This document shows positions 21,359 to 41,193 of a stretch of DNA of 64,000 nucleotides, piece by piece. Numbering within the stretch: the first letter of the stretch is position 1; each line of letters opens with the position of its first letter. The notes under the pieces are model-generated. The model searched no databases. It was given only the letters and a program-made list of their open reading frames with translations, and was not told the origin of the DNA. Source of the stretch: Armatimonadota bacterium (GTDB lineage: Bacteria > Armatimonadota > SYMT01); the NCBI GenBank assembly GCA_041690135.1, contig JAWLHY010000003.1, positions 160,001-224,000 of the forward strand, read 5' to 3'. A program made the translations under genes and the position numbers.

Positions 21359-21363
21359 CGTAG

Positions 21364-24515: not shown

Positions 24516-24529
24516 GGTGGGTGGGAATT

Positions 24530-25240: not shown

Positions 25241-25249
25241 ACCAAACCC

Positions 25250-26632: not shown

Positions 26633-26641
26633 CGGGGCTCT

Positions 26642-26720
26642 GTTAACCGCCAAGACGCCAAGAGCGCCAAGACAAGAGCGTTCTTCCCCTCGTGGCGTCC
26701 TTGGCGTCTTGGCGGTTAAC
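26642..26720. repeat. Palindromic element built from 9-bp units (CGCCAAGA..) between convergent genes
   Basis: Perfect 21-bp IR GTTAACCGCCAAGACGCCAAG ... CTTGGCGTCTTGGCGGTTAAC. Confidence 0.85.
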
Positions 26721-26726
26721 TCTCCA

Positions 26727-27848
26727 TCAGTCCGGGATGAGCCGCACGGTCTCCCCAAACGGGAACCGGTCGAGATCCAGGCCCCCGGCGGTGACGACCC
26801 AGAGGACCGGGAGGCGCGGGGCGGCCTCGGGGAAGGCGCCGTAGCCGTCCGTCAGGTAGAGGCAGACGCCTTCCACTTCGGCCTGGGTCTCGCGCTCCAC
26901 CGCCGCGAAGAACGGGCGGAAGTCGGTGCCTCCTCCGCCTTGCGGTGGGGGTAGAGCGGCGCCCGAGCCGAGGCGATAAGGGCCGTAGGCAGCCGCATCC
27001 ACGTAGTAAAGGTCGCAGAGGAGGTCCGGGTAGGCGGAGAGGATGCCATGGACCTCCCCCAGGAACTGCGCCAACTCGCGCTCGCTGATGGAACCGCTGG
27101 TGTCGATGCCGACGTGCACGCGCACCGTCTCCGTCTCCAGCCCTTCCAGGTAGAGACCGCGACCGATGAAGCGGCGGTCGAAGCCGGAGAAATCGGTGGG
27201 GGTGCGCACCATGTAGCGCCACAGGTGCGAACGCCAGTCGAGACGGGAAGGTTCCAGGCAACCCAACTCGCGAGTTAGGCCGGCGGGTAGGGAGCCCTGG
27301 CCCAGGCTGCGCACCAGGACCGCTGCCTGCGTCCGCGCCTGCCGCCACTGGTTCTCCAACTCCACCGCGGTGGCTCCGGTTGGGAGGTCCAGCAGGTCAC
27401 GGAACCGGCAGAGGACTTCGCCCAGCCCGCCGCCCCGTTGGAGCAGCTCGTACACTTCCTCCACGGAGAGCTTCTCCATCTCCTTGTCGCGGAGGGTGTC
27501 CTTCGGCAGGGAGAACCCCGGCAACGGAGCGATGATCCCGTTGACCACGATATCGGCCGCGATATTCCACAACTCCGGGTCGCGGGTGCCCCGGCGGGGA
27601 ACGTGCAGCAGTGCGGCGTGCAATACCTCATGCAACATCACGCCGTCCAGCTCCGCCTGGCCCAGGGAGAGGAGAAACTCCGGGTTCCAGAAGAGGTCCC
27701 GCCCATCCGTGGCTGCCGTCGGGCAGGTTTCGGTGAGGACGATGCGTGCAAAGAGGGCCAGGGTCGCGAAGAACGGGGCGCGCGACCGCAGCCGCAGCAT
27801 CGAAGCGCTGATCCGGCGCTGGGCTCGTTCGAGGTGGGGATCACTCAC
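26727..27848 (-). CDS. DUF2201 (COG3864-like) putative metallopeptidase fused to a vWA domain
   Basis: PFFATL, TAATDG, MLHEVLHAALLH (HExxH), WNIAADIVVN, MIDAS DTSGS, GGGGTDFRP, YLTDGYG. GTGA overlap with the ATPase stop. Confidence 0.93.
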   Translation of the reverse strand: MSDPHLERAQRRISASMLRLRSRAPFFATLALFARIVLTETCPTAATDGRDLFWNPEFLLSLGQAELDGVMLHEVLHAALLHVPRRGTRDPELWNIAADIVVNGIIAPLPGFSLPKDTLRDKEMEKLSVEEVYELLQRGGGLGEVLCRFRDLLDLPTGATAVELENQWRQARTQAAVLVRSLGQGSLPAGLTRELGCLEPSRLDWRSHLWRYMVRTPTDFSGFDRRFIGRGLYLEGLETETVRVHVGIDTSGSISERELAQFLGEVHGILSAYPDLLCDLYYVDAAAYGPYRLGSGAALPPPQGGGGTDFRPFFAAVERETQAEVEGVCLYLTDGYGAFPEAAPRLPVLWVVTAGGLDLDRFPFGETVRLIPD

Positions 27849-28846
27849 TGGCGCAGCAACTCCGCGTACTCTTGCAGGAACCGCTGCAGCCGGGCGTCCC
27901 GCTGGACGATCTGTGCCAGGACTCCCATCTGCCCGCGTTCCCGCAGGAGCCGGAAGAGGTCCTGGGCAAAGAGCTGCACCCACTCCGCGGGGGCGCGGTC
28001 CGCCAGCCAGCGGAAGGCATGGAACGCTTTGCCCGCGTCCGTGGCACGCGTGGTGAGACCGATGGCAACGGCGTAACGCACGGAGGGGGCCTCCGGAAAG
28101 GAGATCCGCTCGCCCCGACCTTCCAGGATGGCGGCCAGGTCCGGCAGGGACCCGTAGACCTCCAGGTAAGCCATGAACTCCGCGGCGGCCCCCTCCCCCA
28201 CCACCGGTGCCACGTCCAGGCCCACGGCGTGCAGGCTGCCGGCCATGGTCCAGGAGCGCGGAGAAGGCCACGCCACCTGCTGCGGGTCATGCTTGTGCAA
28301 GAGGGAGGGTCGGAACGCAAGGAACGCCAGCACCTGCTCGTGCAGCCCGCTGGCCAGCGAGTGGGTCTTGAAGCTGTCGAAGTCCGGGCTCACATCCAGG
28401 TGTAGGAACCGGTTCGCGAGCGGGGCCGGCATCTCGAAAACGGAGGCACGGTCCTCCTTCCGATTGCCGGCCGCCCAGATAAACCAGCCTTCCGGCACCG
28501 TATACGAGCCGACGCGACGGTCCAGGATCAACTGCTGGGCGATTCCCTGCATGGCCGGCGGCGCCATGTTCAGCTCATCCAGGAAGAGGACGCCCCGGCC
28601 CCCGTCCGGCAGGAACTCCGGCGGGTACCAGCGCGAGCGCCCCCCTTCCGGAACGGGGAGCCCGCGGAGATCCGTCGGCGCCAACTGGGAAAGGCGCACG
28701 TCCACGAACTCCAGCCCGTGCGCCGCCGCGACCTGCGCCACGATGTTCGATTTCCCGATGCCGGGCGGCCCCCAGATCATGGTGCTGAGCATCATCCGGT
28801 GCTCGACCAGCTTCTGGAGATAGTTCTTCAGCGCCTGCGGAGTCAC
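27845..28846 (-). CDS. MoxR-like AAA+ ATPase (AAA_5/dynein-related type)
   Basis: Walker A GPPGIGKS, DLRGLP, Walker B LFLDELN, AAGNR, APLANRF, PSPRSW. Confidence 0.95.
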   Translation of the reverse strand: MTPQALKNYLQKLVEHRMMLSTMIWGPPGIGKSNIVAQVAAAHGLEFVDVRLSQLAPTDLRGLPVPEGGRSRWYPPEFLPDGGRGVLFLDELNMAPPAMQGIAQQLILDRRVGSYTVPEGWFIWAAGNRKEDRASVFEMPAPLANRFLHLDVSPDFDSFKTHSLASGLHEQVLAFLAFRPSLLHKHDPQQVAWPSPRSWTMAGSLHAVGLDVAPVVGEGAAAEFMAYLEVYGSLPDLAAILEGRGERISFPEAPSVRYAVAIGLTTRATDAGKAFHAFRWLADRAPAEWVQLFAQDLFRLLRERGQMGVLAQIVQRDARLQRFLQEYAELLRQ

Positions 28847-28870
28847 GAATACCCGTCCTTTCCTATCTGC

Positions 28871-30508
28871 TTACTCCCTGGTCCGTTCCGCATTCCCACT
28901 CGAAACGAACGAACCCGGGTCCGTAGTTCGAAGTCCACCTTCCCTCACCGAATCCGGCAGCGGAACCTTTAAACGGGCCCGGACCGCGGCCCGGACGAAC
29001 CGGTTGCCGTCGTCCAGCAAAGGCGCGAGATCACCTTCCGGCGTGGCGGGATGGAGCGCTGCAGCGAGACGATCCACCCAGTGGCAGGAGGCCAGGTAGG
29101 GCTCCGCCTGGAGGGCCGCCGCCTCCAGGTGAAGTATCCCCACGAACCGGCAAACCGGATGGAACTCACTTACTGCGTGGACGCGAGCCTGATGGCGTAG
29201 TCGCACCAGTGTGTGGACGGAGAGATCCGGGCGGCGAGCGAGCCGGAGACGCGCCGGCACTTCCGAGTGTCTCACGAGCTTCAACTGGAGATCTATCGGG
29301 GTGAGCGGATGGCCGGCCACGAAGCAGCGGTCATCCGCACTTCCGGAAAAGACCAGCGTGAGCAGGTGATCCCGGATATCCGCCAGCTTCTCCGGGGGGA
29401 GCGTGTTCCCGAGCGCACGCAGCACAGGACGGGGGTACCGAGCAAGAATCTCGATGGGTGCATCGGGGTTGCAGGCACCCAGTGTGGGGATCCCGCGGTC
29501 GGCCTTTGGGCTCGACATCTCTAAAGTAATGTCCTCTTCGGGCCGGCGTTTCTTCGCCAGGGAAGCGCTTCGCCGGACGCAGGGATCGCGGTCGTCGGCC
29601 AGCCGCACGCGAATCTCATCCGGGGTGGACGGGTTGCGGGCAACGCGAACTCGCACGGGGCGGAGCGCATCGCCCGCCAGACGGACCAGGTCTTCACGCG
29701 GAGTGTTCGGATGCCGCGCCGCGACGATGCGGGCCCAGGCCCCACCGCGAGCAAGCTGCGCCAGCGCCCGGGACGGAAGCGTAGGATCCGGCCGCGCCAG
29801 CCGGCCGGCCCGCCGAGAACCCGCGGCCCGCTCCAGGAGACCGGCCAGTCCTTCGCACTCCGCGCTGCGGGCCATCCCCGCCACCACCGCCCGTAGCGCC
29901 GCGAACTCGCCGGATGCGGCGGCCGCTTCCATCACCAGGGCCGGAGCCAGTCCGAGCTCCACGATCTCCAATAAGCGATCGTATACCGGAGTGCACGCCT
30001 CAGCGAACGCCCCACTCAACTCGCGGGCCCAACCGGGCCCCACCTCCCCGGACAGTCCCACGTGATGCCGGGCAGCCATGGCCACCTCATGCTCCGGATG
30101 ATCGGTAAGAGACGCCAGTAGCGGGCGGGATACCTGGGAGCGTCGCAGCAGTTCCTGGCAGAGAATACCGGGTAGGGCTCTCCACACGTCGGGACGCTCC
30201 AGAACGGCGAGATCGAGCGCGGGATTACGAACCACCAATTGGGGATGGAACAGCAGGAGATCTCGCAGGACGTCCGGAGGGGTGTTGGGGTTCAGCGCCA
30301 CCGCCTCTCGTAGCCACGACTCCAGGCCGGCCATTCCCGACCACTCCGCGATTTGCCGCAGCCGGTCGGCGGGAGTTTGGGGGTCCAGCGCATCGGAAGC
30401 CAGTTGCGCCAGTTCGTGCGGATACGGCGGGATCGTTCCATACCGGGGTCGGTCGAGCCGAAGCCTCGCCAGGTTGAGCACCACGTAGGAAGTCAACATC
30501 AACGGCAT
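28871..30508 (-). CDS. Leucine-rich-repeat-variant/HEAT-like repeat protein, paralog 1
   Basis: A.NPNTP..L repeats; C-terminal DGNRFVRAA. Start is uncertain (30508-30646). Confidence 0.8.
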   Translation of the reverse strand: MPLMLTSYVVLNLARLRLDRPRYGTIPPYPHELAQLASDALDPQTPADRLRQIAEWSGMAGLESWLREAVALNPNTPPDVLRDLLLFHPQLVVRNPALDLAVLERPDVWRALPGILCQELLRRSQVSRPLLASLTDHPEHEVAMAARHHVGLSGEVGPGWARELSGAFAEACTPVYDRLLEIVELGLAPALVMEAAAASGEFAALRAVVAGMARSAECEGLAGLLERAAGSRRAGRLARPDPTLPSRALAQLARGGAWARIVAARHPNTPREDLVRLAGDALRPVRVRVARNPSTPDEIRVRLADDRDPCVRRSASLAKKRRPEEDITLEMSSPKADRGIPTLGACNPDAPIEILARYPRPVLRALGNTLPPEKLADIRDHLLTLVFSGSADDRCFVAGHPLTPIDLQLKLVRHSEVPARLRLARRPDLSVHTLVRLRHQARVHAVSEFHPVCRFVGILHLEAAALQAEPYLASCHWVDRLAAALHPATPEGDLAPLLDDGNRFVRAAVRARLKVPLPDSVREGGLRTTDPGSFVSSGNAERTRE

Positions 30509-30624
30509 ACCGTCGCCCTCACCCCGATCCCCCTTTCCCAAGCAGACGCGGGCGGGCAGCCGGATGTTCCCCGGTAACCGCGTCGAGGGACGGCGGTGCC
30601 GGACGCGGTGAGAGCAGCCGGCTA

Positions 30625-32520
30625 TCAGCCGACGCCCCACAGGCACTCGGGTGGCGGGTTCCCCGTCAGGCGCCAGCGGGCGGCGGCGCGAACCAGGCGG
30701 TTACCGTCCCGCGCCAGCTTCTCCAGGAGGTCGTACGGAGGAGTGGGGTGGAGGGTGACTCCCAGGCGCACCTGCCAGCGGTGGCTCCGGCTCGCGGTGC
30801 GCAAGTGCTTTTCCGGTAGGGCCGGATGGGACAGGCCGAGGATCGCCGGCAGCGGTTCGTGACAGCCGCCGCAAGCCGCCAGGACCTTCTCCCGCAGCAT
30901 CTCCCCGGCCTCCACGGGTAGGTGACGGTTCCGCCAAAGGCTCCGACGGACTTGCACGCTGGGGTCTTCCGCCAGGCGGACGAGGGCCTCGGGAGACCGC
31001 ACGCGCCACGCAGCGCCGGCGGCGTATTTCTCAATCAGCTCCGCCGGAGCCACCGGGTTGCGGAGCACGGCCCGCGTGATTTCCGCGCTCCATCCACGCG
31101 CCAACCCGGACAGCGTCTTTGCCGGGGTATTGCGATTCCGGGCCACTCGCAGACGGATCGCGTCGTACCGGCTGGTGGCCAGCCGCTCCAGGGCCAACGG
31201 CGGGGTCGCGGGGTTCCCGGCCACAGCCAAGCGAATGTCGCGCTCGCGGTCGCTTGCCAGTCGCATCAGCAGGTCCGGCGGCTGCGCGCGGTCCCGAGCC
31301 AGGGCGAGGCGCACCGGGATGGCCAGCCCCGCCACCCACTCCTTCAGCGACACCTCCGCAGGCGGCTCCGGCAGGGGAAGCCGGATTGTCTCAAGAGGTT
31401 CCGTGGGCTGGAGTCTCCCGCATCCGGCACACGCGGGTTCCGGAGTTGCGATCGGGCGCAACGCCCGCTCCGCCGAGTTCCGCACGCGGGTGTCGGGGTC
31501 GCAGGCCAGGTCCTCCGCGACTCCCATCGGGATAGCCGGATGCCGGGCCACCGCGGCGCGGACTCGAGCCTCCGGGTCCCGGGCGAGGCGGCACAACAAC
31601 TCCGCGGGTGCGCTTTCATTCCGGGCCACGGCGAGACGCTCCCGCAGGCGTGGGGAGGCGGCCAGCGTTTCTAGAGCCTCCACCGGAGTGGCCGGATGCC
31701 GCGCTACCGCGCGCCGGACCGCCACCTCCGGATCGGCGGCCAGGCACTCCAGGAGTTCCGGCGGCGTGTTCGGGTGCCGAGCCGCCAGCCTGCGGAGCCA
31801 GGTCCCTCCGGCTGCCAGGCAGGCGAGCTCTTCCGGTGCGGCAGGCACGTCCGGGCGAACGGGACCGCTGAGGTCCCAGGTGCCCGTGAGCCGCCGCAAC
31901 AGGTCGAAGAGAGGCTGATAGCCGGAGTTGCGGCGGGCTCCCCAGCAGAAAGAGACGCGTTCCCACCGACGGAGTTGCTCTCCCAGCAGCCGCTCCGCCA
32001 CCCGGGGCGACACTTCACCCTGCTCCAGCAGCGCCAGCACGCACGCGTGCCGCTCAGGATTGAGCCTTCGCTGCATCAGCTTCCCGAACTCGGCCTGTAC
32101 CAGCGCGACCCACTCATCCCCCGTTTCGCCGGCCAGGAGGACGTGGTGCCGGGCCTCGTCAGCCAGGGCCGGTGAGCGCTGTGAGAAGGTAACTACCAGC
32201 GATTCCGGGACATCGGCGCGGGCCAGGACGGCCCCGGACACGAACTCCGGGAGCTTCCGCATGAAGTCCGGGTCTTCGAGCAGCAGGAGGGGAAGGACCG
32301 GGTTCTCCAGCAGTGCCTCCGGAAACTGCTCGAAGGCTTGCCGGAGGAGACTCGGCGGCGCGTTGGGGTTCCGGGCGATCGCGGCCCGCAACTCCCGGCG
32401 CAGGGCACGCCGGAAATCCCACCCGTCGAAGAGCTCCTCCAGCCGCTCCGGCGGCGTGGATGGGTCGGCCGCATCCAGCCGCGCCCGCTCGATCTCCAGA
32501 ACCAGGTCACGCTTCGACAC
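30625..32520 (-). CDS. LRV/HEAT-like repeat protein, paralog 2
   Basis: LA.D....VR.AVA.HP.TP repeats; C-terminal DGNRLVRAAA. Confidence 0.85.
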   Translation of the reverse strand: MSKRDLVLEIERARLDAADPSTPPERLEELFDGWDFRRALRRELRAAIARNPNAPPSLLRQAFEQFPEALLENPVLPLLLLEDPDFMRKLPEFVSGAVLARADVPESLVVTFSQRSPALADEARHHVLLAGETGDEWVALVQAEFGKLMQRRLNPERHACVLALLEQGEVSPRVAERLLGEQLRRWERVSFCWGARRNSGYQPLFDLLRRLTGTWDLSGPVRPDVPAAPEELACLAAGGTWLRRLAARHPNTPPELLECLAADPEVAVRRAVARHPATPVEALETLAASPRLRERLAVARNESAPAELLCRLARDPEARVRAAVARHPAIPMGVAEDLACDPDTRVRNSAERALRPIATPEPACAGCGRLQPTEPLETIRLPLPEPPAEVSLKEWVAGLAIPVRLALARDRAQPPDLLMRLASDRERDIRLAVAGNPATPPLALERLATSRYDAIRLRVARNRNTPAKTLSGLARGWSAEITRAVLRNPVAPAELIEKYAAGAAWRVRSPEALVRLAEDPSVQVRRSLWRNRHLPVEAGEMLREKVLAACGGCHEPLPAILGLSHPALPEKHLRTASRSHRWQVRLGVTLHPTPPYDLLEKLARDGNRLVRAAARWRLTGNPPPECLWGVG

Positions 32521-32928
32521 GAGAGTGGATGATGCTCCTCGACATCGGTGAGCGTGCCAGCGCAATGCTGGCACCCAACAACTGGCGTCTCAACTTTCGG
32601 CTCCTTTCCGCTGGATGGAGCGAGGGTCCTCCTCTCCATCACACCTGCTCGCACGGCAGTTCCCAACGCCAAACCGCATCACCCGGGCTGACCAGACGAC
32701 TTCCTGCGATGCAATGTGATGCAACGTTGCGGATCCCGAACATCTGCTAAATTAGTTCGAAGTTAGGTGTTCACACTAATTTTCTTAAGAAAGTACTGAG
32801 ATTTGGCACATGCGACGGTTACCGGGAGGTAGGTAGCACTGTTAGGGTGCAAAGTAGAGTAAGCCCAGCCAATCAGGCGGCAGGAGTGCTAACCTGCCAC
32901 GGGTTCTCTCAATTGTGGAGGGAGTCAG

Positions 32929-33732
32929 ATGAACCAGCGAAAGGGGTTCACGCTCATCGAGCTACTGGTGGTGATTGCCATCATAGCCATCTTGGCCGCA
33001 ATACTTTTCCCGGTCTTCGCACGAGCGCGTGAGGCGGCCCGCGCGACCAGTTGCAAGAGCAATCTCAAGCAGCTTGCGCTCGGCATCTCCATGTACGTGC
33101 AGGACTACGACGAGCTGTACATGAGCCGCAGCATGCCGTTCGTCGGCACTGCAGGCACCCACTGGGGATACGCGATTGCTCCGTACACGAAGAACCTGAA
33201 CATCCACCAGTGTCCTTCGAACCCGCAGCGGAACGCGAATACCAGCCAGGCGCCTCCACCGGGCTCCGGGCTCCCGCAGATGAAACGGTCCTACGGAGTC
33301 AACGCCTGGTTCCTCCAGGACCCCGGCTTCAATGGCCAGGTGATGAACAACTACAACGTGGGACAGGCCCAGATTGCCGATCCGGCCGAACGGATTATGA
33401 TTGGCGAGCTCATGGACGGGCACAACGACTACGTCGGCGGAATCTGGAACGGCACAGGTAACTACGCGGCAACGACCCGGCCACCGACCAGCCGTGGTTT
33501 CGCCGGACATAGCGGCATGATGAACGTGGCCTTCTTCGACGGCCACGTGAAAGCTATGAAGCCAAGTCAGACCGTGAGCGGCAAGCTGATGTGGGTTCCG
33601 AACATGCAGAGTGCGGACCCCGCCCAGTGCCCCAACTTCACCACGGGCGTGCGCGCTTCCGGGACGGCCAGTGCCCAGCAGTGTACGGACCTCAAGCTCG
33701 GTATGCAGGCGCTTGAGGCCGTTTGGAACTAG
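32929..33732 (+). CDS. DUF1559 prepilin-type N-terminal cleavage/methylation protein with H-X9-DG motif
   Basis: [40 protein letters not shown]; [15 protein letters not shown]. Confidence 0.95.
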
Positions 33733-33763
33733 ATGGCGAGAACACTCTGAACGCCGACTTCGT

Positions 33764-33801
33764 AAGAGAGGGGGGAGGGCGCTTCGCTCCTCCCTCCTCT
33801 T
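33764..33801 (+). terminator. Intercistronic stem-loop (partial terminator or mRNA stabiliser)
   Basis: AAGAGAGGGGGGAGGGCG-cttc-GCTCCTCCCTCCTCTT. Confidence 0.5.
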
Positions 33802-33843
33802 GCGGAATACTACGCCGCACCGCTCCGCACCGGTCTCTTCTGC

Positions 33844-35019
33844 ATGTCGCTGCGCATTCTCATCCTGGCCGCCTCGGTACTGATCAGTATTGGAGCCGCC
33901 GTTCTCCTCTTGGGAGGTAGCCGCCCTCCCTCGCAAGACCTGGCGACGGCCCAGCGTCGGCTCGAGGCAGGTACCGCCAGCCCGGCCGAAATCGTGGCGC
34001 TGGGAGAGAAGTTCCTCCAACGCGGGGAGCTCTTGAAAGCCGCCGAAATGGGGTTTCGCGCCCGCAAGGCCGATCCACGGCTTCCCGCACCCCACCTCCT
34101 TCTCGCTACGCTCTACACGCAAAGCCAGGAGCCGGAGAAGGCGCGTGCCTCCTACCAGGATGCCGTCCGGGTCGCTCCCGAATTACTCGTCCCCCGGCTT
34201 AACCTGGCCCGCTTCGAACTTGAGCAGCGGAACGGCCCAGCCGCGCTGGAGCACGCGCAGGCGGCCGTCAACATCGACCGGAACAGCGCCGAGGCGTGGC
34301 TCCTCGCCGGCAGGATACAGCGCCTGTTCAAGAGCGACGGGACCTCCGCGTCCTCCTACCGCCGCGCGATTACCCTCAACCCGGAGCTGGCCGAGGCCCA
34401 TCTGGAGTTGGGGGTGCTGTCGCTGGATTTCGACAAGTACTCGGAGGCCGTCGCTCCGTTGGAGCGCGCCTACGAATTGGGCCTGCGTACCCCACAACTG
34501 ATGTCCTGCCTGGCACTGGCCCTGGTGGCGGGACCGGGCGGCGACGACGCCGCTACGCGCGCCGAGCAGTTGCTGAAGGAAGCGGGAAGGCCGGAGATGC
34601 CGGCCTCCTGGTTTGCCCAGGGTCTGCTGCACCACCGCAGCCGGGACCTCCCGCGGGCCTGTGAAACATTCGAAAGGGTCCTGCGCGCTAACCCCCGCAA
34701 TGAACGCGCCCAGTATGCACTCGCCATGGCTTACCGCGATGCCGGGCGGAAGACGCTGGCCCAAAAGGCCATACGGCGTCACGATCTCCTGGTGCGTCGG
34801 CGCCAAGCCTTACGGCAGTTCTCCCAGGGAATCACCGAGGAACCCAATTCACCCTCCCGGCGCAAGGCCTATGGACAGGCGCTGTTCGAGATCGGGGACT
34901 TCCGGGCGGCGGAAGCGCAATTCCGCGCCTGGTGCGAATTGGCGTCGAAGAACGCGGAAGCCAAACAGTGGCTGCGCCGGGCTCGGGAAAAGCTGCGCGA
35001 ACAAGACGGGGCTCGATGA
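33844..35019 (+). CDS. Membrane-anchored tetratricopeptide repeat protein
   Basis: N-terminal TM segment; TPR units (YRRAITLNPELAEAHLELG, FERVLRANPRNERAQYALA). Confidence 0.88.
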   Translation: MSLRILILAASVLISIGAAVLLLGGSRPPSQDLATAQRRLEAGTASPAEIVALGEKFLQRGELLKAAEMGFRARKADPRLPAPHLLLATLYTQSQEPEKARASYQDAVRVAPELLVPRLNLARFELEQRNGPAALEHAQAAVNIDRNSAEAWLLAGRIQRLFKSDGTSASSYRRAITLNPELAEAHLELGVLSLDFDKYSEAVAPLERAYELGLRTPQLMSCLALALVAGPGGDDAATRAEQLLKEAGRPEMPASWFAQGLLHHRSRDLPRACETFERVLRANPRNERAQYALAMAYRDAGRKTLAQKAIRRHDLLVRRRQALRQFSQGITEEPNSPSRRKAYGQALFEIGDFRAAEAQFRAWCELASKNAEAKQWLRRAREKLREQDGAR

Positions 35020-36683
35020 GTAACCGATACCCTTCCCGCACCACGTTCGCCATACTGGCCGCTGCCGCAAGTTTGACCGGCTGCCAACCCCCCCGGCAGT
35101 CTCAGCGTGCCCCGGCTCCGGAGACTCCGCAGTTCGTGAATCGGACCGCGGAGTCCGGGATCGACTTCGAGCAACGCAGCGGTGCGGAGAAGGTTCTCGA
35201 TATCGTGCAGACTTCCGCCGGCGGGGTTGGGGTCCTCGACTACGATGGCGACGGTTGGCTGGATCTCTACTTTGTGCAGGGGCAACACCGGAACGGCGCG
35301 GGCGGCGGTAACCGGCTATACCGGAACCGCGGCAACGGCACCTACGAGGATGTTACCGAACGCGCCGGGGTGCGCGGTCGCGGCTACGGCATGGGCTGCG
35401 CGGTCGGCGATTTCAATGCGGATGGATGGCCGGACCTCTTCGTCTGCAACCACGGAACCAGCCAACTGTTTCAGAACCGCGGTGATGGAACCTTTGAGGA
35501 TGTCACCGCGAAGACCGCCGCGGACGTGCGGGGGTGCAGCATCAGCGCGGTGTTCACCGACCTCGACCAGGATGGCTGGCCGGACCTGTACGTCGCCCGC
35601 TACATCCGCCTGGCGCCGGACAGTCGCATGCTCTGCACCAGCAGCGGCCTGCCGGTGAGCTGCGATCCGCAGGCCTACCCCGCGCAGCCCGGCGTGTTTC
35701 TCCGCAACGAGCAGGGCCGCCGCTTCGTGGACCGGACTCTTCCGGCGGATCTCCTGAATGAGGGCCGGGGAATGGCGGCCCTGGCGGCGCACCTGAACGA
35801 CGACTCCCGGTTGGACCTGTTCATTACCAATGACACGAGCGCCAACGCCCTGTTCCTGGCGAAGCCCGGTGGCAGCTTCGAGTCGGCGGGCGCGCTCTCC
35901 GGGGTAGCTTACGGCGAGTTGGGGGTGGCCGAAGCCAACATGGGGTGTGATGCCGGCGATTTCAACGGGGACGGCCGGCTCGATCTTTTTGTGGGCGTGA
36001 TGCAGGACCGCGCCAGCCTGCTGTTCCGGAATGAAGGCGGCGGGCTGTTTACCCTGGTGACCCGCGAGGCTGGGTTGGCCGAGGCCAGTAGTCCCGTCGT
36101 CACCTGGGGAGTGGGTTTCCTGGATTTCGATCAGGACGGCGACCTCGATCTCTTCCAGGCGAACGGGCACGTCAACACCCTCGCCGCGGAGGTCAACCCG
36201 ACGCACCGCTTTCTGCAGCCACGTCAGCTCTTCGAGAATGACGGAGCGGGGCGGTTTACGGATGCGAGCGCACGCGGCGGCCCCGCCATGACCACCCCCG
36301 CCGCGGGTCGCGGCGCCGCCTTCGGTGACCTGGACAACGACGGGGATGTAGACATCGTGGTGAACAACCTGGATGGCCCGCCGTCCGTGCTCTTCAACCA
36401 GGCGGAGAAGTCCGGAAGCCACTGGCTGCAGATACGCCTGGTGGGGAAGCATCCCAATTCCAGCCCTGAGGGCACGCTGGCACGGCTTTCCGTTGGTGAA
36501 CGCACCCTAACCCGCCACCTCCACCGCGGCTACAGCTATGCATCCGCCAGCGACCCCCGGCTCCACTTCGGCCTGGGACCCGCCACCCAGGTGGGACCGC
36601 TCGTCGTCACCTGGCCGGACGGTACTCGCCAGGAAGTCGCCGTACCGGGCATCGACCGGGAGTTGACCGTGCGCCAGCCCTAG
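35016..36683 (+). CDS. CRTAC1 family (FG-GAP + ASPIC/UnbV) lipoprotein
   Basis: Lipobox LTGC; DYDGDGWLDLYF, GDFNGDGRLDLF repeats; SYASASDPRLHFGLG; ATGA overlap with the TPR gene. Confidence 0.93.
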   Translation: MSNRYPSRTTFAILAAAASLTGCQPPRQSQRAPAPETPQFVNRTAESGIDFEQRSGAEKVLDIVQTSAGGVGVLDYDGDGWLDLYFVQGQHRNGAGGGNRLYRNRGNGTYEDVTERAGVRGRGYGMGCAVGDFNADGWPDLFVCNHGTSQLFQNRGDGTFEDVTAKTAADVRGCSISAVFTDLDQDGWPDLYVARYIRLAPDSRMLCTSSGLPVSCDPQAYPAQPGVFLRNEQGRRFVDRTLPADLLNEGRGMAALAAHLNDDSRLDLFITNDTSANALFLAKPGGSFESAGALSGVAYGELGVAEANMGCDAGDFNGDGRLDLFVGVMQDRASLLFRNEGGGLFTLVTREAGLAEASSPVVTWGVGFLDFDQDGDLDLFQANGHVNTLAAEVNPTHRFLQPRQLFENDGAGRFTDASARGGPAMTTPAAGRGAAFGDLDNDGDVDIVVNNLDGPPSVLFNQAEKSGSHWLQIRLVGKHPNSSPEGTLARLSVGERTLTRHLHRGYSYASASDPRLHFGLGPATQVGPLVVTWPDGTRQEVAVPGIDRELTVRQP

Positions 36684-36699
36684 AACCTGCCGGCCGGCT

Positions 36700-38775
36700 T
36701 CACTCCGGCTCCCAAGCCCTCGGGGGTACCTCTCCCGCCAGTTGCGACCGTGCCGCGGCCCGGACGAGGCGGTTCCCGTCGCACGCGAGACGGCTGAGTA
36801 GCTCGGGGCCTGCCTTCGGGTTCAGTGCCACGGCCAGGCGGCATTCCCAATAGCGGTGAATTGCCCCCTTCCGGAGGCCCTCCGCCGGCTGCTCCGGATG
36901 GGAAAGCGCCAGGAGCTGGCACAGGTCCAGGCCGTGCTCGCTGGCCTGGCAGAGGGCGGCCCCCCGGAGCGCCGCTTCCGTCGCCGCTGACCGCCGGGGA
37001 TGGCGCCGGACCGCGCGGCGCACTTCGAGATCAGCATCGCCGGCCAGGCGGTTCAGGATCTCCGGTGGGAGTTCCGGCTTGCGGGCCACTACCAACCGCA
37101 CCTCCGTGGCCTGCGCCCCGGCGAGGCACTCCAGTACCGCAAAAGTCCCGTGCATGGCAACCAGTGCTTCCGCCACCGTATCGCTCCAGCACTGCGCGGT
37201 CAGCCGGTCCAAGTGTTCGGGAGTCAGGCGGGGATTACCGGCGAGGGAGAAGAGGATCCGGGGAGTGCTGCTCTGCGAAAGGCGCTCCAACGCGGCCTCC
37301 GGTGCGGAAGGATTGCCGGCCACCGCCGCCCGGACCTCCCACTGGAGATCCTGCGAGAGCAGGTCCAGCATTTCCGCCGCTTCTGCCGGGTTCGCCGCGA
37401 TCTCTCGACGCCGGCGCATCCCCAGCCCCTGAAGGCGCTCAGCGGGGGGCCGCTGCCGGTCCGGCTCGCTCGGGAGCGAGCCGGCAGCCACCGAGTTGGC
37501 CTCATACCCAGGGGGTAGTGCGTGTGATACTGCCCCGTGAATGGAAGGATCGCCCGCAGCCATCCGCGCCCTCCCAGGTAAGGGGCGCTGTCGCGTCCGG
37601 TACTCCCCATCAAGCCGCTGCTTCCGAACCTCTGCCGGGGCGGCCGGGTTCCTCACCGCGCCCAGCCGCACCGCAGGCTCGACATCCGACGCCAGCGCAA
37701 TAAGCGCCTCCGCCGGACACGCGGGGTTCCGCGCCACGGCACTCCGTACCCTTTCCGCAGTATCGCCAGCCAGTTGGGTCAACCGTTCCCCAGGAGTGGT
37801 CGGGTGGCGTCCGACGGCGGCTCGAATCCGCGCCTCGGGATCCTCGGCCAGGCGCGCCAGTAGTTCCGGCCCCGCCGACGGGTTGCGAGCCACCGCCAGG
37901 CGCACCCGCAGGTAGCGGGATCCCGCCAGGTCCGCCAGGACCTCCGGAGGCGTGGCGGGGTGCGCGGCCACCTCGCGCTGGACGGTCAGGTCTCCCACCT
38001 CCGCCAGGCGCGCCAGAAGGTGCGGGGGCGTGCGCGGATGGCGGGCCGCAAGACGGCGCAGCCAACCGTCGTTCCCGGCCAGCCAGCACAGGGGTTCGGG
38101 ATCGACCTCCGGGTCCGGCGCCCCTCTTCCGCGAAGGTCGCGGGTTCCGGTGACCTTCCGCAGCAAATCCAGCAGCGGCCGGTAGGCGGCATTCCGGGTG
38201 GCGCCGCGGAGCAGGACCTGTCGCACCGGATAGGCGGAGCTGGCGCCGACCGCGCGGGCCGCCACTTCCACCGGAACCAACCCGAGTTCGATCAATTCGA
38301 GCAGGAACGGCGACAGGTGCAACGACGGGGCCCGCAGGACATTGTGGGCCTCTTCCCTCCACTCCGCGCCGGCTTCTCCCGCCAGGCGCACGTGCTGGGC
38401 GGCTTCGGTAGCCAGCCGGGGTTCCCGGTGGGCCAGGAGCGCCGAGAGGAAGAAGTGGGGGAGGTCCTCTTCACGGAGGAGGTTCTGCAGGGCCGCCCGG
38501 TCACAACGGGAAAGGAAACCCGGATCTTCCAGCAGATAGAGCGGCAGCGCCGGGTTCTTCAGCGCCTGGAGCGCGGGCCCGTCGAAGAAGAGGAAGCAAA
38601 GGATCTCCGGCGGGAGGTTGGGATTGGCCGCCGCGCCACAGATCACCGGGGATTGTTTGCGATCCGCATCCAGTTCTTCCCGGCAGAGCTCGACCAGGCG
38701 CGCGGAGGGCGTGGTCGGATCGGCCGCTTCCTGCAGACGGCGCGCTTGCGAGCTGCGCTTTCCCTGCTTTGGCAT
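36700..38775 (-). CDS. LRV/HEAT-like repeat protein, paralog 3
   Basis: AGGAG RBS; same N-terminal block, repeats and DGNRLVRAAA terminus. Confidence 0.85.
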   Translation of the reverse strand: MPKQGKRSSQARRLQEAADPTTPSARLVELCREELDADRKQSPVICGAAANPNLPPEILCFLFFDGPALQALKNPALPLYLLEDPGFLSRCDRAALQNLLREEDLPHFFLSALLAHREPRLATEAAQHVRLAGEAGAEWREEAHNVLRAPSLHLSPFLLELIELGLVPVEVAARAVGASSAYPVRQVLLRGATRNAAYRPLLDLLRKVTGTRDLRGRGAPDPEVDPEPLCWLAGNDGWLRRLAARHPRTPPHLLARLAEVGDLTVQREVAAHPATPPEVLADLAGSRYLRVRLAVARNPSAGPELLARLAEDPEARIRAAVGRHPTTPGERLTQLAGDTAERVRSAVARNPACPAEALIALASDVEPAVRLGAVRNPAAPAEVRKQRLDGEYRTRQRPLPGRARMAAGDPSIHGAVSHALPPGYEANSVAAGSLPSEPDRQRPPAERLQGLGMRRRREIAANPAEAAEMLDLLSQDLQWEVRAAVAGNPSAPEAALERLSQSSTPRILFSLAGNPRLTPEHLDRLTAQCWSDTVAEALVAMHGTFAVLECLAGAQATEVRLVVARKPELPPEILNRLAGDADLEVRRAVRRHPRRSAATEAALRGAALCQASEHGLDLCQLLALSHPEQPAEGLRKGAIHRYWECRLAVALNPKAGPELLSRLACDGNRLVRAAARSQLAGEVPPRAWEPE

Positions 38776-38783
38776 GGCGTCTC

Positions 38784-40133
38784 CTAACCTTTGGGGAACG
38801 TCATCGGGGTATCCGGGAGCGGCTCACCCGCCAGCTTTACCAGCGCGGTTGCCCGGACCAACCGGTTCCCGTCCTCACTCAGCAGGAGCACCAACGTCCG
38901 GGGAGCCTCTGGATGCAGCAAGACCCCCAGGCGGTCCGACCACTCGAGGGAGGCTGCCGCGCGCTCCAGAACCTGCAGCGGGGTGCCGGCGCGGGAAAGC
39001 GCCCAGTACCGGCAGAGCGGCTCCGGAGCACGGGCTGCCTCTTCCAGGACCCTCCTTTGGAGAGTAGCTTGCTCCTCTTCCGTCCGGTCCTGGCGCCGAA
39101 AGAGCGCCACCTGGACCACCGGGTCCGTGTCCCGCAGCAGTTCCCGGCGCATCCACGCCGGCAATTCCGGATGCGCGGCGGCCGCCCGCCGCACCTCACG
39201 GGAAGGAAATCCGGAGTTCCGTTGCCGCGCCAGCTGGCGCCAGATCTGCTCCAGGAGTTCCGCCGTGGCATGGGGGTGCTTCGCCAGCCTTTCCACCAGC
39301 GGCAAGTCACCTACCCCACGCCGTTCGGAAAGGCGCAGCAGGACCTGGGCTTCCGAGGTGGGGTTCTTCGCCAGGCGCTCCCACACCGTCCTGGAGGGAT
39401 CTTCCACCAGGCGCATCCGGATCTCATGGGGAGTAGAAGGATTACTCGCCACGGCTTCCCGCACCGCACTGCGGGTGTCCGCAGCCAGGATGAAGAGTTC
39501 TTCCGGTGATGCCGCCGGATCGCGCGCGCGCTTGACCCTGAGGTTCGGCGGCATACCTTCGACCGGTGAGAGTACTCCTGGCTTTGTGGATGCTGCGTTG
39601 GCACCGGATCGCAGCCGCCTCGCACCCGGTTTCCGGGCCGGGTGAGTGACCGGACCGGACGGTGCGGCACCGATCTCCTCCAGCGCCAACCAGTGGTCAC
39701 TTCGGACGAGCGGCTGCCTCCCCAGCTCTTCCCGCAGTTCCGCTCGCCAGTCGCCGTCCTGCTTCGCGAGAGATACGTGCAGCCGGGCCGCGGTGGCGAC
39801 CTCCGGAGCCGGGTGTTCCAGGAGGATGCGTGCCCAAACGGCCGGCGCGTCCGCCCGGCAAAGGATCTGTTGCAGGGCGAAGGCCGGCGAACGATGGAAG
39901 CACTCCGGCTGTTCCATGAACAGGAGCGGGACCACTGGGTTCAGCATCACCCGGTACGGATGCCACGGCAGCAGCCACTGGAGAACCTCCAGGGGAGTAT
40001 TGGGGTTCCCGGCAATGCTGTTCAACTGGGCGCTGCGCGGGCCCTGGAGGTTGTAATAGGCGCAGGCGGCGGCAAGCAAGAGATGCGGAGGGAATTCCGG
40101 GTTCTCGTAGATCGCGCTATCGCAGCCACTCAT
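38784..40133 (-). CDS. LRV/HEAT-like repeat protein, paralog 4
   Basis: IAGNPNTPLEVL, LNPVVPLLFMEQP, DGNRLVRATA; start overlaps the end of the DHDPS-family gene. Confidence 0.8.
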   Translation of the reverse strand: MSGCDSAIYENPEFPPHLLLAAACAYYNLQGPRSAQLNSIAGNPNTPLEVLQWLLPWHPYRVMLNPVVPLLFMEQPECFHRSPAFALQQILCRADAPAVWARILLEHPAPEVATAARLHVSLAKQDGDWRAELREELGRQPLVRSDHWLALEEIGAAPSGPVTHPARKPGARRLRSGANAASTKPGVLSPVEGMPPNLRVKRARDPAASPEELFILAADTRSAVREAVASNPSTPHEIRMRLVEDPSRTVWERLAKNPTSEAQVLLRLSERRGVGDLPLVERLAKHPHATAELLEQIWRQLARQRNSGFPSREVRRAAAAHPELPAWMRRELLRDTDPVVQVALFRRQDRTEEEQATLQRRVLEEAARAPEPLCRYWALSRAGTPLQVLERAAASLEWSDRLGVLLHPEAPRTLVLLLSEDGNRLVRATALVKLAGEPLPDTPMTFPKG

Positions 40134-41193
40134 CGCGGTGCTCCCGGACGAAGGCATCGTCGTTCTGGTCCGGATAGGCGCGGTAGACGCGATCGATCTC
40201 CTCCGCCTGGCCGGGGGAGAGGCCTTCGCGCTCGTCCAGGCACCAGGTGCCCGCAAGCAAGCCCTGCCGCCGCAGCACCTCGTGCAGGCCGGCGATGCAG
40301 CCATGGAACCCATGCGCCGCATCGAAGAAGGCGGCGTTGGCATCGGTGACCTGCACCGCGCGGCTCAGCCAGGCGGCATCGATCCGCGGCTCCGCGCGGG
40401 CGGCCTTCACTTCTTCCAGGAGTTGAACCGCCTTCCGGGCCCACACCGCCCAGTGGCCCAGCAGTCCCCCGGCGATCCGCAGGCGGACGCTCTGACCCTC
40501 CACCGGAAGCTCCCAGGTGGTGAGGAGATCCAGCACGATGTTGTCGTCGTTGCCGGTGTAGAGGGCGATGTCGTCGCGCCCGGACTCGGCCACGGCGCGG
40601 ACCACGTCCAGCGTCTGGTAACGGTTGAACGGCGCCATCTTGATCGCCACGACGTTGGGAATCTCCACGAAGCGGCGCCAGAACTCGTACCGGAAGACCC
40701 GTCCGCCGACCGCCGGCTGCAAATAGAACCCGAACACCGGGATCGTGTCCGCCACCGTCCGGCAGTGCTGGAGGACGGCTTCGTCCGGCTGCTCCTTCCA
40801 GGCGGAGAGGCTGAGCAGCCCGGCGTGATAGCCATACCGGCGCGCCGTTTCCGCTTCGCGGAACGCCTGCGCGGTATCGCCGCAGAGGCCCGCGATCTTC
40901 GCTACCGGCGCGCCGCCGTCGGGGCGTTCCGCGTCCACCGTTACGGAGGCCAGCTCCAGCACCGGCGCGTACAGACCGCGCTCGCGAATGGTGAACTGCG
41001 TGGTGTGCACCCCCACCGCTACCCCGCCCACGCCGGCCGCGAAGTAGTACCGGGTGAGGGCACGCTGCCGCCGCTCATCCAATTCCCGCTCGGCCGTCAG
41101 CGCCAGGGGATGAGCGGGAATCACCTGCCCCGCCAGAAGGTGAGCCCGCAAAGCTGCCGGATCGAAGAGAGACACTGACTTGGGGCCTGTCAT
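40117..41193 (-). CDS. Dihydrodipicolinate synthase family aldolase/dehydratase
   Basis: VIPAHPLAL, GVHTTQF, FYLQPAVGG, AIKMAPFNRY, LYTGNDD. Confidence 0.9.
   Translation of the reverse strand: MTGPKSVSLFDPAALRAHLLAGQVIPAHPLALTAERELDERRQRALTRYYFAAGVGGVAVGVHTTQFTIRERGLYAPVLELASVTVDAERPDGGAPVAKIAGLCGDTAQAFREAETARRYGYHAGLLSLSAWKEQPDEAVLQHCRTVADTIPVFGFYLQPAVGGRVFRYEFWRRFVEIPNVVAIKMAPFNRYQTLDVVRAVAESGRDDIALYTGNDDNIVLDLLTTWELPVEGQSVRLRIAGGLLGHWAVWARKAVQLLEEVKAARAEPRIDAAWLSRAVQVTDANAAFFDAAHGFHGCIAGLHEVLRRQGLLAGTWCLDEREGLSPGQAEEIDRVYRAYPDQNDDAFVREHRDEWLR

Follow-up and report, generated by a model that had tools for sequence, protein, structure and literature searches.

A candidate ATP-driven protein-remodelling machine in Armatimonadota built from a MoxR-type ATPase, a metallopeptidase-vWA protein and a dedicated family of LRV-repeat proteins

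A 64-kb stretch of an Armatimonadota chromosome, analysed here as a whole and referred to as the window, carries a locus in which a MoxR-type ATPase, a metallopeptidase-vWA protein and four paralogous LRV-repeat proteins are encoded together. Our preferred, though tentative, reading is that this locus encodes a three-part, ATP-driven machine that remodels and cleaves proteins, with the LRV proteins as exchangeable target-binding subunits. The machine would combine a MoxR-type AAA_5 ATPase with a co-chaperone that joins a zincin-type HExxH peptidase to a MIDAS vWA domain; LRV alpha-solenoids, a family dedicated to the pair, would be its third component.

ORF calling over the 13.4-kb region places all six genes of the claimed set on the minus strand. 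The fusion of a zincin-like metallopeptidase (DUF2201_N) with a vWA domain (DUF2201) is 373 aa long and occupies 26727..27848, and the MoxR-type AAA+ ATPase (AAA_5, 333 aa) lies at 27845..28846. The vWA gene starts with a GTG at 27848 and overlaps the stop codon of the AAA gene (27845-27847) as GTGA, as verified by frame check and translation. Upstream, 24 nt containing a purine-rich stretch separate the stop of LRV paralog A from the AAA start, so that both the spacing and the overlap given in the original prediction are correct. Paralog A (28871..30508, ~545 aa from ATG 30508) has its N-module at 30002-30400 and its C-cap at 28934-29137, and paralog B (30625..32574), a 649-aa ORF of uncertain start, has them at 32077-32475 and 30631-30834. 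Paralog C (36700..38775, 691 aa with an ATG start; N-module 38332-38730, C-cap 36709-36906) begins 8 nt past the stop of paralog D (38784..40157, ~457 aa from ATG 40157; N-module 39720-40127, C-cap 38808-38999). The ORFs of A and D are open as far as 30646 and 40343, respectively, but the upstream parts are probably non-coding and ATG 30508 and ATG 40157 the likely starts.

The paralogs had been described as four co-oriented genes leading into the AAA gene. All four are indeed on the minus strand, and A and B lead in; C and D, however, are cut off by an insert of three plus-strand genes between B and C (32929..36683), which encode a DUF1559/N-methyl prepilin-type protein (32929-33732), a TPR protein (33844-35019) and an FG-GAP/ASPIC protein (34932-36683). 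Because these opposite-strand genes interrupt the series, with 4.1 kb parting D-C from B-A-AAA-vWA, the four LRV genes do not form one co-oriented run. The insert is not part of the system and divides the LRV genes into two units. G+C content is 0.625 at 32001-34000, compared with 0.66-0.71 in the adjacent 2-kb intervals.

The ATPase and the vWA protein form a well-defined pair. Pfam assigns the vWA gene DUF2201_N (112.3 bits, cut-off 23.2) and DUF2201 (62.2 bits, cut-off 26.4), in that order, and the protein retains an intact HEVLH motif and an intact MIDAS (DTSGS...T...D). H73, E74, H77, D249, S251, S253, T308 and D334 are invariant across 49 vWA orthologues, which together with the Pfam result confirms the predicted DUF2201 protein with HExxH and MIDAS vWA elements. 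In its AF2 model (pLDDT 83.8), the vWA fold matches 9doc_A (Z 14.0, rmsd 2.4 over 133 residues) and superposes on the MDN1 MIDAS, Rea1 MIDAS and NorD vWA domains (Z 11.3-11.4). The N-terminal domain, covered only slightly by the structure comparison, matched no peptidase structure. The ATPase scores 35.2 bits for AAA_5 (cut-off 22), has the Midasin AAA domain as its top PDB sequence match (E 6e-12), and carries Walker A (GPPGIGKS) and Walker B (LFLDE) residues that are invariant in 42 orthologues. The MoxR clade as such is marked by a helix-2 insert and an arginine finger (Kaur et al. 2020, PMC7159879). Judging from the conserved Walker A/B, HExxH and MIDAS residues, the machine looks active.

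The closest families of both proteins are phage families. The match to phrog_1297 spans the whole ATPase (E 6e-81), and that of the vWA protein to phrog_1314 runs from residue 6 to 370 of 373 (E 5.8e-68); the phage pair (PHROG 1297 + 1314) has the same domain order, and 12 of 13 viral loci share with the window the gene order ATPase, then peptidase-vWA. With a relative of the vWA protein in 461 phage records, MoxR/zincin-vWA is among the commoner uncharacterised phage gene pairs, and it is also found on plasmids and chromosomes. For group 2.2 jumbo phages, in which the pair was noted, a role in chaperoning and peptidolytic processing of structural proteins has been proposed (Iyer et al. 2021, Viruses 13:63, PMC7824862). 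The resemblance has limits, as the window proteins are merely 28-45% identical to the phage proteins. A virion-assembly role cannot apply to the window pair, since it lies on a chromosome without phage genes nearby. Furthermore, an LRV-family gene is present in none of the 13 viral loci carrying the pair, whereas the cellular orthologues are tied to LRV or pentapeptide partners; the phage pair therefore works on something else.

The four LRV paralogs share their ends and differ in between. Pfam LRV (PF01816) is detected in A, B, C and D at 39.4, 93.7, 117.9 and 29.8 bits (cut-off 21.6), and LRV, LRV_2 and HEAT are the only Pfam families found in them. Pairwise identity is 29-38%; the closest paralog of B is C (38%), and the nearest database relative of C is P0002 (60%). 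The four appear to be old, diverged copies that were amplified in the present genome. An N-module of ~130 aa (NPNTP...NPxLPLLLLExP...) is collinear in all four, with 23 invariant columns over 134 positions of the four-way alignment, and every paralog ends in a C-cap (W..RL....(H/N)P..........DGNR(L/F)VRA) whose terminal repeat closes with DGNRxVRAA. ORFs, Pfam and alignment thereby recover the six-gene set and the N- and C-terminal motifs that had been quoted for it. The accompanying picture of conserved caps around a variable solenoid is accurate for architecture, since repeat number and indels differ in the middle (54-235 gapped columns, versus 0-9 in the caps), but overdrawn for sequence: mean pairwise identity is 35% in the N-module and 40% in the cap against 32% in the middle, a mild contrast.

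We define the N-module together with the DGNR cap as the hallmark of a putative LRV subfamily, and both ends are retained in 82 of the 120 best homologues. Across 46 family members, only an Arg and the Asp of DGNR are invariant, and these positions are typical of any LRV repeat; like the mild contrast in identity, this counts against the target-binding reading. The AF2 model of paralog D (pLDDT 89.7) consists of short-helix solenoid modules at ~14-161 and 204-442 with a disordered linker between them, contains no enzymatic domain, and finds its best fold matches in PP2A HEAT scaffolds and 1LRV. The latter, the Azotobacter vinelandii LRV protein on which the Pfam LRV family was founded, has the same short-helix repeat as the window paralogs (E 1.1e-2, TMt 0.45 against the paralog D model). 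1LRV carries an Fe-S cluster domain; the four-way alignment contains no conserved Cys motif common to the paralogs. A search of the family profile against PDB chains gave no significant sequence match.

The LRV family and the pair are distributed together. Of 251 Armatimonadota genomes, nine have a vWA orthologue (E <= 1e-60), the very same nine have the N-module (E <= 1e-12), and 242 have neither; in six of the eight other carriers, LRV genes adjoin the pair (G010, G018, G031, G038, G050 and G183). The best 80 orthologous loci span three phyla (Armatimonadota, Cyanobacteria, Ktedonobacteria), with filamentous Cyanobacteria and Ktedonobacteria, which are multicellular, supplying most of them; 61 contain LRV-family ORFs, 1-7 per locus. 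A co-directional LRV gene stops less than 400 nt upstream in 39 of the 67 loci having the AAA gene, and clustering of 1019 neighbouring ORFs left only vWA (83 loci), AAA (67) and LRV (64) as widely shared, followed by repeat proteins, a restriction-modification pair and an SDR (9 loci). In the 9.1-Mb genome of the window itself, 60,380 stop-to-stop frames are 80 aa or longer; the N-module and cap profiles match only the four paralogs, all within 13.4 kb of the pair, so their clustering exceeds chance. The predicted linkage of LRV genes to the AAA/DUF2201 pair is therefore borne out, by co-occurrence in nine of 251 genomes and by the 61 loci, out of 80 in three phyla, that hold both. It could still be supposed that the LRV genes are mere neighbours of a domesticated phage gene pair, functionally unrelated to it, as the opposite-strand genes separating C and D from the pair might suggest, along with LRV arrays found away from it in some genomes (seven in tandem on G044:C11, three on G031:C1). 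The shared set of genomes, the adjacency in three phyla and the confinement of all own-genome copies to one locus already contradict this explanation, which we consider very improbable; exact phyletic co-occurrence and adjacency support a functional tie between the LRV genes and the pair.

Relatives differ in how many LRV genes they carry, so that the anticipated variation in paralog number is found and invariance is ruled out: 0-7 copies occur per locus, at lengths of 245-976 aa, and one relative has up to 25 N-module matches. Nostocales inherit their LRV genes stably, as position-specific orthologous groups whose divergence is only ~1.5-2.5 times that of the ATPase/vWA pair. At the sequence level, the LRV genes thus diverge faster than the pair and are not hypervariable.

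Other scaffolds occur at the same place. Pentapeptide-repeat genes, some fused to WD40, are found in 22 of the best 80 loci, and of the 19 loci lacking LRV genes, 10 have one, often adjoining the vWA gene. Since LRV or pentapeptide/WD40 genes take the same slot, this slot accepts different protein-binding repeat scaffolds. Together with the scaffold-like solenoid of paralog D, this favours target binders, as does the fact that one pair serves several partners, both within a locus and in the unlinked arrays. Against binders stand the nine of 80 loci with neither LRV nor pentapeptide genes (at least four of which are truncated, the contig ending shortly upstream of the pair) and the pair of G044, next to which no LRV gene was found within the 12 kb examined.

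A further possibility, which we hold to be real though rather doubtful, is that the LRV proteins are clients: the MoxR/vWA pair would fold, assemble or disassemble the solenoids, and the zincin domain would process them. The co-occurrence and linkage data fit this equally well, and it parallels the virion assembly and processing proposed for the phage pair (Iyer et al. 2021, PMC7824862). As a rule, the third protein encoded with the classical MoxR-vWA pairs (Kaur et al. 2020, PMC7159879) is a client and not an adaptor, and characterised substrates such as Ytm1/Rsa4, Rubisco and NorB support clients by analogy and count against binders. Minimal family members of 245-271 aa, which consist of N-module and cap alone, would remain recognisable clients and lack a repeat body with which to hold a target, and the disordered linker of paralog D may be a site of capture or cleavage. 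Clients of this kind, however, would lack any obvious function in their own right, because no enzymatic, membrane or DNA-binding domain was found in the LRV proteins (Pfam on the four paralogs; model and fold search for paralog D). Unrelated scaffolds in one slot are easier to explain by interchangeable binders than by a specific client, and the viral loci carry the pair without LRV genes.

RavA-ViaA, CoxD-CoxE, NorQ-NorD, CbbQ-CbbO and Rea1/Midasin resemble the window pair in that a MIDAS vWA protein partners an ATPase of the AAA_5/MoxR class. Their vWA partners lack a peptidase domain, whereas the window protein is predicted to carry one. They act on defined enzymes or ribosomal factors; here the partner is a family of repeat scaffolds, and the system as a whole has a patchy distribution. 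By likeness to CoxD/CoxE, NorQ/NorD, CbbQ/CbbO and RavA/ViaA, the pair could be a housekeeping maturation factor that inserts a metal or cofactor or assembles a complex for a specific enzyme, with LRV proteins as assembly scaffolds and no link to conflict, which we judge unlikely. The surroundings would suit such a factor: neighbours across the 64-kb window are ordinary metabolic genes (fucosidase, DHDPS-like, epimerase, peptidases), a tRNA search of the window found none, and no integrase is among the annotated neighbours. So would the stable Nostocales orthologous groups and the lack of a match to PADLOC models (no family in PADLOC-DB 2.0.0 for the six proteins at E <= 1e-3). However, no conserved candidate client enzyme emerged near the pair from the clustered neighbouring ORFs, the closest families are those of phages, and in Synechocystis PCC 6803, whose plasmid pSYSA carries all three parts, the trio sits among toxin-antitoxin genes. 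The distribution is very patchy, with none of six other genomes of the window's own family carrying the system, and yet the cellular ATPase/vWA pair forms a tight group, 52-77% identical between members from three phyla. Such a pattern is consistent with an accessory function that spreads horizontally.

In known systems of this type, the vWA protein captures a peptide via its MIDAS and the MoxR ATPase remodels the bound protein (Kaur et al. 2020, PMC7159879). For the exchangeable subunits that we favour, the N-module and the DGNRxVRA cap, collinear around a body that changes by repeat number, would tie the LRV proteins to the pair, and a protein target would be held by the repeat body of variable length. 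An exposed acidic peptide would be caught by the MIDAS of the vWA protein; remodelling of the assembly would fall to the ATPase, and cleavage, of either the bound target or the solenoid, to the peptidase. The four paralogs would give one motor four specificities. Beyond the observed gene set, intact catalytic motifs, linkage and co-occurrence, this scheme infers physical binding, the docking end, the cleaved substrate and the biological role.

A defence role for the LRV/MoxR/vWA locus is plausible, although the lack of PADLOC matches, the ordinary neighbours and the stable inheritance in Nostocales lend it no support. Ternary MoxR-vWA conflict systems of VMAP, iSTAND, FtsH and beta-propeller types (Kaur, Burroughs, Iyer, Aravind 2020, eLife 9:e52696, PMC7159879) likewise pair a MoxR ATPase and MIDAS vWA core with a variable third gene, and they often contain repeat scaffolds (HEAT/TPR, pentapeptide, beta-propeller). 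Unlike these systems, the window has an ATPase of the phage phrog_1297 type and a vWA protein with an N-terminal zincin domain of family DUF2201_N, and Pfam detected no VMAP, STAND NTPase, FtsH or vWA-fused propeller at the locus, where no effector domain or DGR was found either. The terms LRV and COG3864 are absent from the main text of that paper, and our literature search found no publication connecting LRV proteins with the MoxR/DUF2201 pair. By its gene content, the window locus would join the known ternary kind with an LRV third component. We see some chance, although a limited one, that it represents a fifth conflict class, in which a captured phage chaperone/protease pair and arrays of repeat-protein sensors bring about ATP-gated proteolysis. 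The LRV solenoids, or the pentapeptide and WD40 proteins, would then recognise invader proteins, and lineage-specific expansion of these sensors, from the four here to the larger set in the relative, would determine the repertoire. A role in defence, if real, would extend the MoxR-vWA conflict systems that have been predicted in multicellular bacteria by a branch based on a protease.

The trio recurs in several bacterial phyla as well as on pSYSA and, as Synechocystis PCC 6803 is genetically tractable, what the machine binds and cuts is directly testable. New here is that one well-conserved cellular branch of the pair has a dedicated family of partners, and a large one: the N-module profile matches 5,535 cluster representatives at E <= 1e-3 and 108 at E <= 1e-30.

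The gene set comprises six genes, all on the minus strand according to the ORF calls in the window, in a 9.1-Mb genome of 25 contigs; the G+C content of the window ranges from 62 to 71% in 2-kb windows. The vWA ORF (26727-28271) carries a Pfam DUF2201_N putative metallopeptidase domain (112.3 bits) and a DUF2201 vWA-like domain (62.2 bits), and is preceded by the gene for the MoxR-type AAA ATPase (27845-28846; AAA_5, 35.2 bits). Upstream of this pair lie the four LRV-repeat paralogs: A (28871-30646), B (30625-32574) and C (36700-38775), each with LRV/LRV_2 repeats above the Pfam cut-off, and D (38784-40343), which exceeds the cut-off for LRV and reaches 24.0 bits for LRV_2, short of the cut-off of 27. 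In the vWA ORF, the Pfam match begins at residue 152, and an in-frame GTG is found at 27848. Translation and a frame check confirmed the proposed GTGA coupling, with this GTG overlapping the AAA stop codon (27845-27847). The distance from the stop of A to the GTG at which the AAA gene begins is 24 nt, a gap that contains a purine-rich stretch. The stop codon of D is followed after 8 nt by the ATG of C. Because the N-module, the shared N-terminal region of the paralogs, begins at ORF residues 83 in A and 73 in D, the ATGs at 30508 and 40157, respectively, are their probable starts.

The original prediction of a variable-receptor protein-targeting or conflict system had treated the four LRV genes as a single co-oriented run. 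This arrangement was not borne out, as 4.1 kb with three plus-strand genes separates B from C. The insert (32929-36683) encodes a DUF1559/N-methyl prepilin-type protein, a TPR protein and an FG-GAP/ASPIC protein, and due to its opposite orientation the set is better described as a D-C unit and a B-A-AAA-vWA unit. G+C content is lower (0.625) in the first 2 kb of the insert. Promoter-like and terminator-like sites in the window did not exceed the shuffle expectation (1 versus 1.1 and 4 versus 9.4), and no tRNA genes were found there. On the far side of a plus-strand fucosidase gene, 2 kb from the vWA gene, lies a separate 459-aa HEAT_2/PBS-lyase-type repeat protein (23430-24809, minus strand) that matches neither the N-module nor the cap profile. 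Searched against all 60,380 frames of 80 aa or longer in the genome, these two profiles match A-D and no further copies.

The paralogs share 29-38% pairwise identity, with B and C forming the closest pair. Their alignment contains the predicted N-terminal blocks (DP.TP..RL, NPN.P, NP..PL....E.P and A..HV.L......W) within a module about 133 aa long, in which 23 columns are invariant, and likewise the predicted C-terminal cap, a terminal repeat of the form W..RL....(H/N)P..........DGNR(L/F)VRA. Gapped columns per pair number 0-9 at the ends versus 54-235 in the middle, indicating that the ends are collinear while the body varies by repeat number. The proposed opposition of conserved caps and a variable center therefore stands in part: changes in repeat number are confined to the body, but the ends are not strikingly better conserved, with mean pairwise identities of 35% for the N-module and 40% for the cap compared to 32% for the middle.

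This architecture extends well beyond the window. Among the 120 best homologues of C in 5.8 billion proteins, 82 (435-1192 aa) have an N-terminal N-module together with a cap at most 60 residues from the C-terminus; LRV proteins fused to NACHT, Uma2 or H3TH domains lack both. The N-module profile matched 5,535 cluster representatives at E <= 1e-3, 1,841 at <= 1e-10 and 108 at <= 1e-30, a signal that is partly generic to LRV repeats since most matches fall in several stretches. The shortest members, from an Armatimonadota genome with a minimal trio of LRV, ATPase and vWA genes (G018), consist of N-module and cap only (245-271 aa). The structure that AF2 predicts for D, an all-alpha solenoid of short helices (pLDDT 89.7, pTM 0.84), is organized in two modules (residues 14-161 and 204-442) with a disordered linker in between. 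Its best Foldseek matches, none of them at E <= 1e-3, are PP2A HEAT scaffolds and 1LRV, i.e. generic HEAT/ARM/LRV solenoids, and the LRV-family profile had no match among PDB sequences.

Both proteins of the pair retain their signature residues. The Walker A (GPPGIGKS) and Walker B (LFLDE) motifs of the ATPase are invariant across 42 orthologues, as are the HEVLH motif and the MIDAS residues D249, S251, S253, T308 and D334 of the vWA protein across 49. In the AF2 model of the vWA protein (pLDDT 83.8), a linker that is poorly defined connects the vWA domain to an N-terminal helical domain, which contains the HExxH helix. Fold searches returned matches in the vWA domain alone, with the N-terminal peptidase domain barely covered. 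More specifically, the vWA domain aligned with 9doc_A (Z 14.0, rmsd 2.4, 133 residues) and with the vWA domains of MDN1, Rea1 and NorD (Z 11.3-11.4). The vWA profile had no match among PDB sequences, and neither NCBIfam nor PADLOC contained a family for any of the six proteins. A relatives search placed the nearest relatives of the pair in Armatimonadota records, and on this ground an origin in Planctomycetota, to which the DUF1559 and PSCyt2/PSD1 genes had pointed, was rejected.

To assess the predicted linkage, we surveyed 251 sampled genomes of the phylum for vWA orthologues (E <= 1e-60; 58-63% identity) and N-modules (E <= 1e-12). The same nine genomes, including the genome of the window, have both and the remaining 242 have neither, in agreement with the prediction; the nine carriers belong to four families and are kin rather than independent cases. 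The six other genomes from the same family as the window have neither a vWA orthologue nor an N-module. LRV genes directly adjoin the pair in G010 (one copy), G050 (one), G038 (two) and G031 (four), while G018 has two upstream of the pair and one on its other side, and G183 has an N-module 2.2 kb upstream of the vWA gene. In the fragmented assembly of G233, pair and N-module are on separate contigs, and in G044, whose pair is on a 15.5-kb contig, the 12 kb examined contain no LRV gene. Unlinked copies also occur, with 25 N-module matches at E <= 1e-3 in G044, seven of them in tandem on contig C11, and 11 such matches in G031, three of them on C1. In G038, a 512-aa ORF without a Pfam family (L007:5429-6967, minus strand) separates the two LRV genes from the AAA gene. 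Genomes outside the nine showed only a distant vWA paralog of about 620 aa (30-38% identity), which is found in several relatives. The genome of the window has this paralog too, as part of a second, distant AAA_5 + DUF2201_N pair without an LRV gene (C7:107066-110009; L106:6067-9010, minus strand), in which a 618-aa vWA-type ORF, its peptidase domain matched in two stretches, is followed by a 263-aa ORF without a Pfam family.

A scan with one genome per species yielded 424 vWA relatives, of which the best 80 loci were analyzed. These belong to Armatimonadota, Cyanobacteria and Ktedonobacteria, the cyanobacterial loci being mostly from Nostocales (Calothrix, Rivularia, Nostoc), along with Pleurocapsales and Leptolyngbya. 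At least one LRV-family ORF is present in 61 of the 80 loci, N-module and cap occur in one ORF in 57, and an AAA gene is found in 67; in 39 of these 67, a co-directional LRV gene ends less than 400 nt before the AAA start. Paralog number differs among relatives, as had been anticipated: counting copies of at least 200 aa, 22 loci have none, 27 have one, 22 two, four three, three four, one five and one seven. Clustering of 1019 neighboring ORFs from 84 loci, with L021 and L092 omitted as duplicates, gave three widely shared clusters, namely vWA (83 loci), AAA (67) and LRV (64 loci, 126 ORFs). Together, these comparative data establish the LRV genes, the ATPase and the vWA-peptidase as a three-component module. 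Individual loci deviate in their ATPase: a 727-aa AAA ORF in Scytonema (L087:7117-9300) has an N-terminal AAA_5 domain and then about 400 residues without a Pfam match, and in Hyella (L016:7430-9903) genes for a Piwi-domain protein and a trypsin-like peptidase lie upstream of an orphan vWA gene with no adjacent AAA.

A fourth cluster comprises pentapeptide-repeat proteins, some of them fused to WD40, in 22 of the 80 loci and usually right beside the vWA gene (L050:11198-12301, L068:11226-12317, L018:11238-13532, L023:11256-13519 and 18 further loci). In the annotated Nostoc loci L018 and L023, the pentapeptide repeats are fused or adjacent to WD40 propellers. Among the 19 loci that lack an LRV gene, ten carry a pentapeptide gene, suggesting that these proteins may be an alternative partner type; as a result, 71 of the 80 loci hold one or the other. 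At least four of the nine loci with neither end at a contig edge just upstream of the pair. A short-chain dehydrogenase gene was observed beside the module in nine loci from three phyla (L008:3959-5341, L012:4801-6114, L090:4226-6013, L050:12363-13595 and five more), with its Pfam match split in two stretches; the window has no homologue of it.

In our reading, which we hold tentatively while ranking it first, the LRV proteins would serve the ATPase/vWA-peptidase pair as exchangeable partner subunits that bind targets. This is suggested by a slot that takes unrelated protein-binding scaffolds, by several paralogs per single pair, and by the retention of both ends around a variable body across the family. 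Complex prediction for the G018 minimal trio (AAA 334 aa, vWA 362 aa, LRV 245 aa) gave scores of 0.60, 0.58 and 0.57, compared to 0.00 and 0.00 with unrelated proteins in place of the LRV partner; replacing the vWA protein with an unrelated one still gave 0.55, so that the scores speak neither for nor against binding. The chief alternative, which we consider somewhat unlikely, is that the pair remodels and cuts the LRV proteins as its clients. Four MoxR-vWA ternary conflict systems (VMAP, iSTAND, FtsH and beta-propeller) were described by Kaur et al. 2020 (PMC7159879), whose main text mentions neither LRV nor COG3864, although its supplementary tables might list such loci. Literature searches on DUF2201 gave nothing on this system, judged by titles and abstracts; those on COG3864 and on 'leucine rich repeat variant' with MoxR found no papers, and those joining LRV, AAA+ and von Willebrand found nothing relevant.

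The pair has counterparts in phages and plasmids. The ATPase matches phrog_1297 (E 6e-81) and the vWA protein phrog_1314 (E 5.8e-68), both over their full length; the label 'HNH endonuclease' of phrog_1314, shared by several RefSeq phage records, is at odds with the HExxH and vWA domains. A total of 461 phage records include a relative of the vWA protein, in every case with less than 60% identity, and in cyanophage S-TIM5 the relative adjoins a 'MoxR-like ATPase'. Iyer et al. 2021 (PMC7824862) noted this MoxR + metallopeptidase-vWA pair in jumbo phages of group 2.2 and proposed for it a role in virion assembly that includes peptidolytic processing. None of 13 viral loci carrying the pair contains an LRV-family ORF. 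A further 70 plasmid records contain vWA relatives. On pSYSA of Synechocystis PCC 6803 (L107, record 20266-28630), which has been termed a defence plasmid (PMC9978351), MoxR SGL_RS00750 and 'VWA-like' SGL_RS00745 (47% identity) are surrounded by RelE/ParE, PIN-like, HepT, GNAT/DUF1778 and DUF262 genes. Located 4.2 kb away, the 638-aa 'hypothetical protein' SGL_RS00715 matches the N-module (E 6.7e-50) and the cap (8e-13), so that pSYSA carries a complete trio among toxin-antitoxin and DUF262 genes; no literature linking pSYSA and MoxR was found. Thermus oshimai pTHEOS01 (L108, record 59581-72728) also carries the pair, its vWA protein being matched at 52.7% identity over 88% of the length, with a RecQ-family helicase gene on one side and a UvrD-type helicase gene on the other; a weakly LRV-like ORF (E 3.7e-5) is found upstream, and downstream there is a hypothetical gene of 746 aa. 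In 13-14 Rivularia-type loci of one lineage, the vWA gene and an LRV gene downstream of it have a DpnII/Dam restriction-modification pair between them. In the cyanobacterial locus L041 (11556-13441), this restriction-modification pair consists of a DpnII restriction endonuclease and a D12 adenine methyltransferase, and 12-13 loci are similar.

The ATPase of the window is 58-77% and its vWA protein 52-68% identical to the counterparts in other loci, and the best LRV match per locus reaches 22-33% identity over more than 190 aligned residues, with 40-43% in short fragments only. In the Nostocales series, LRV orthologues are 78-94% identical where the ATPases are 90-94% identical, and 35-56% where these are 71-83% identical; they diverge faster than the pair, without hypervariability. 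A quick maximum-likelihood tree of N-module and cap (124 rows, after exclusion of two duplicate loci and of rows that were shorter than 220 aa or contained X) separates the Armatimonadota proteins from those of Cyanobacteria and Ktedonobacterales (SH-aLRT 89). Within the Armatimonadota group, paralogs cluster by genome, indicating lineage-specific duplication: seven G044 rows require one change, and the G038 pair has a support of 100. B and C of the window group together (84), whereas A and D are long and not placed, and the four copies are old duplicates. Nostocales proteins form position-specific orthologous groups.

A conflict role, as a candidate function of the module, would fit the phage ancestry of the pair, its patchy, apparently horizontally spread distribution, the lineage-specific LRV expansions, and the pSYSA and restriction-modification contexts. 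The stable orthology in Nostocales, the lack of hypervariability and the ordinary context of the window weigh against a reading of the LRV proteins as arms-race receptors. A housekeeping role in maturation seems improbable next to the partner-subunit reading. The neighbors in the window are alpha-L-fucosidase, DHDPS-family, NAD epimerase, BNR, S9 and M28 peptidase and glucuronyl esterase genes.
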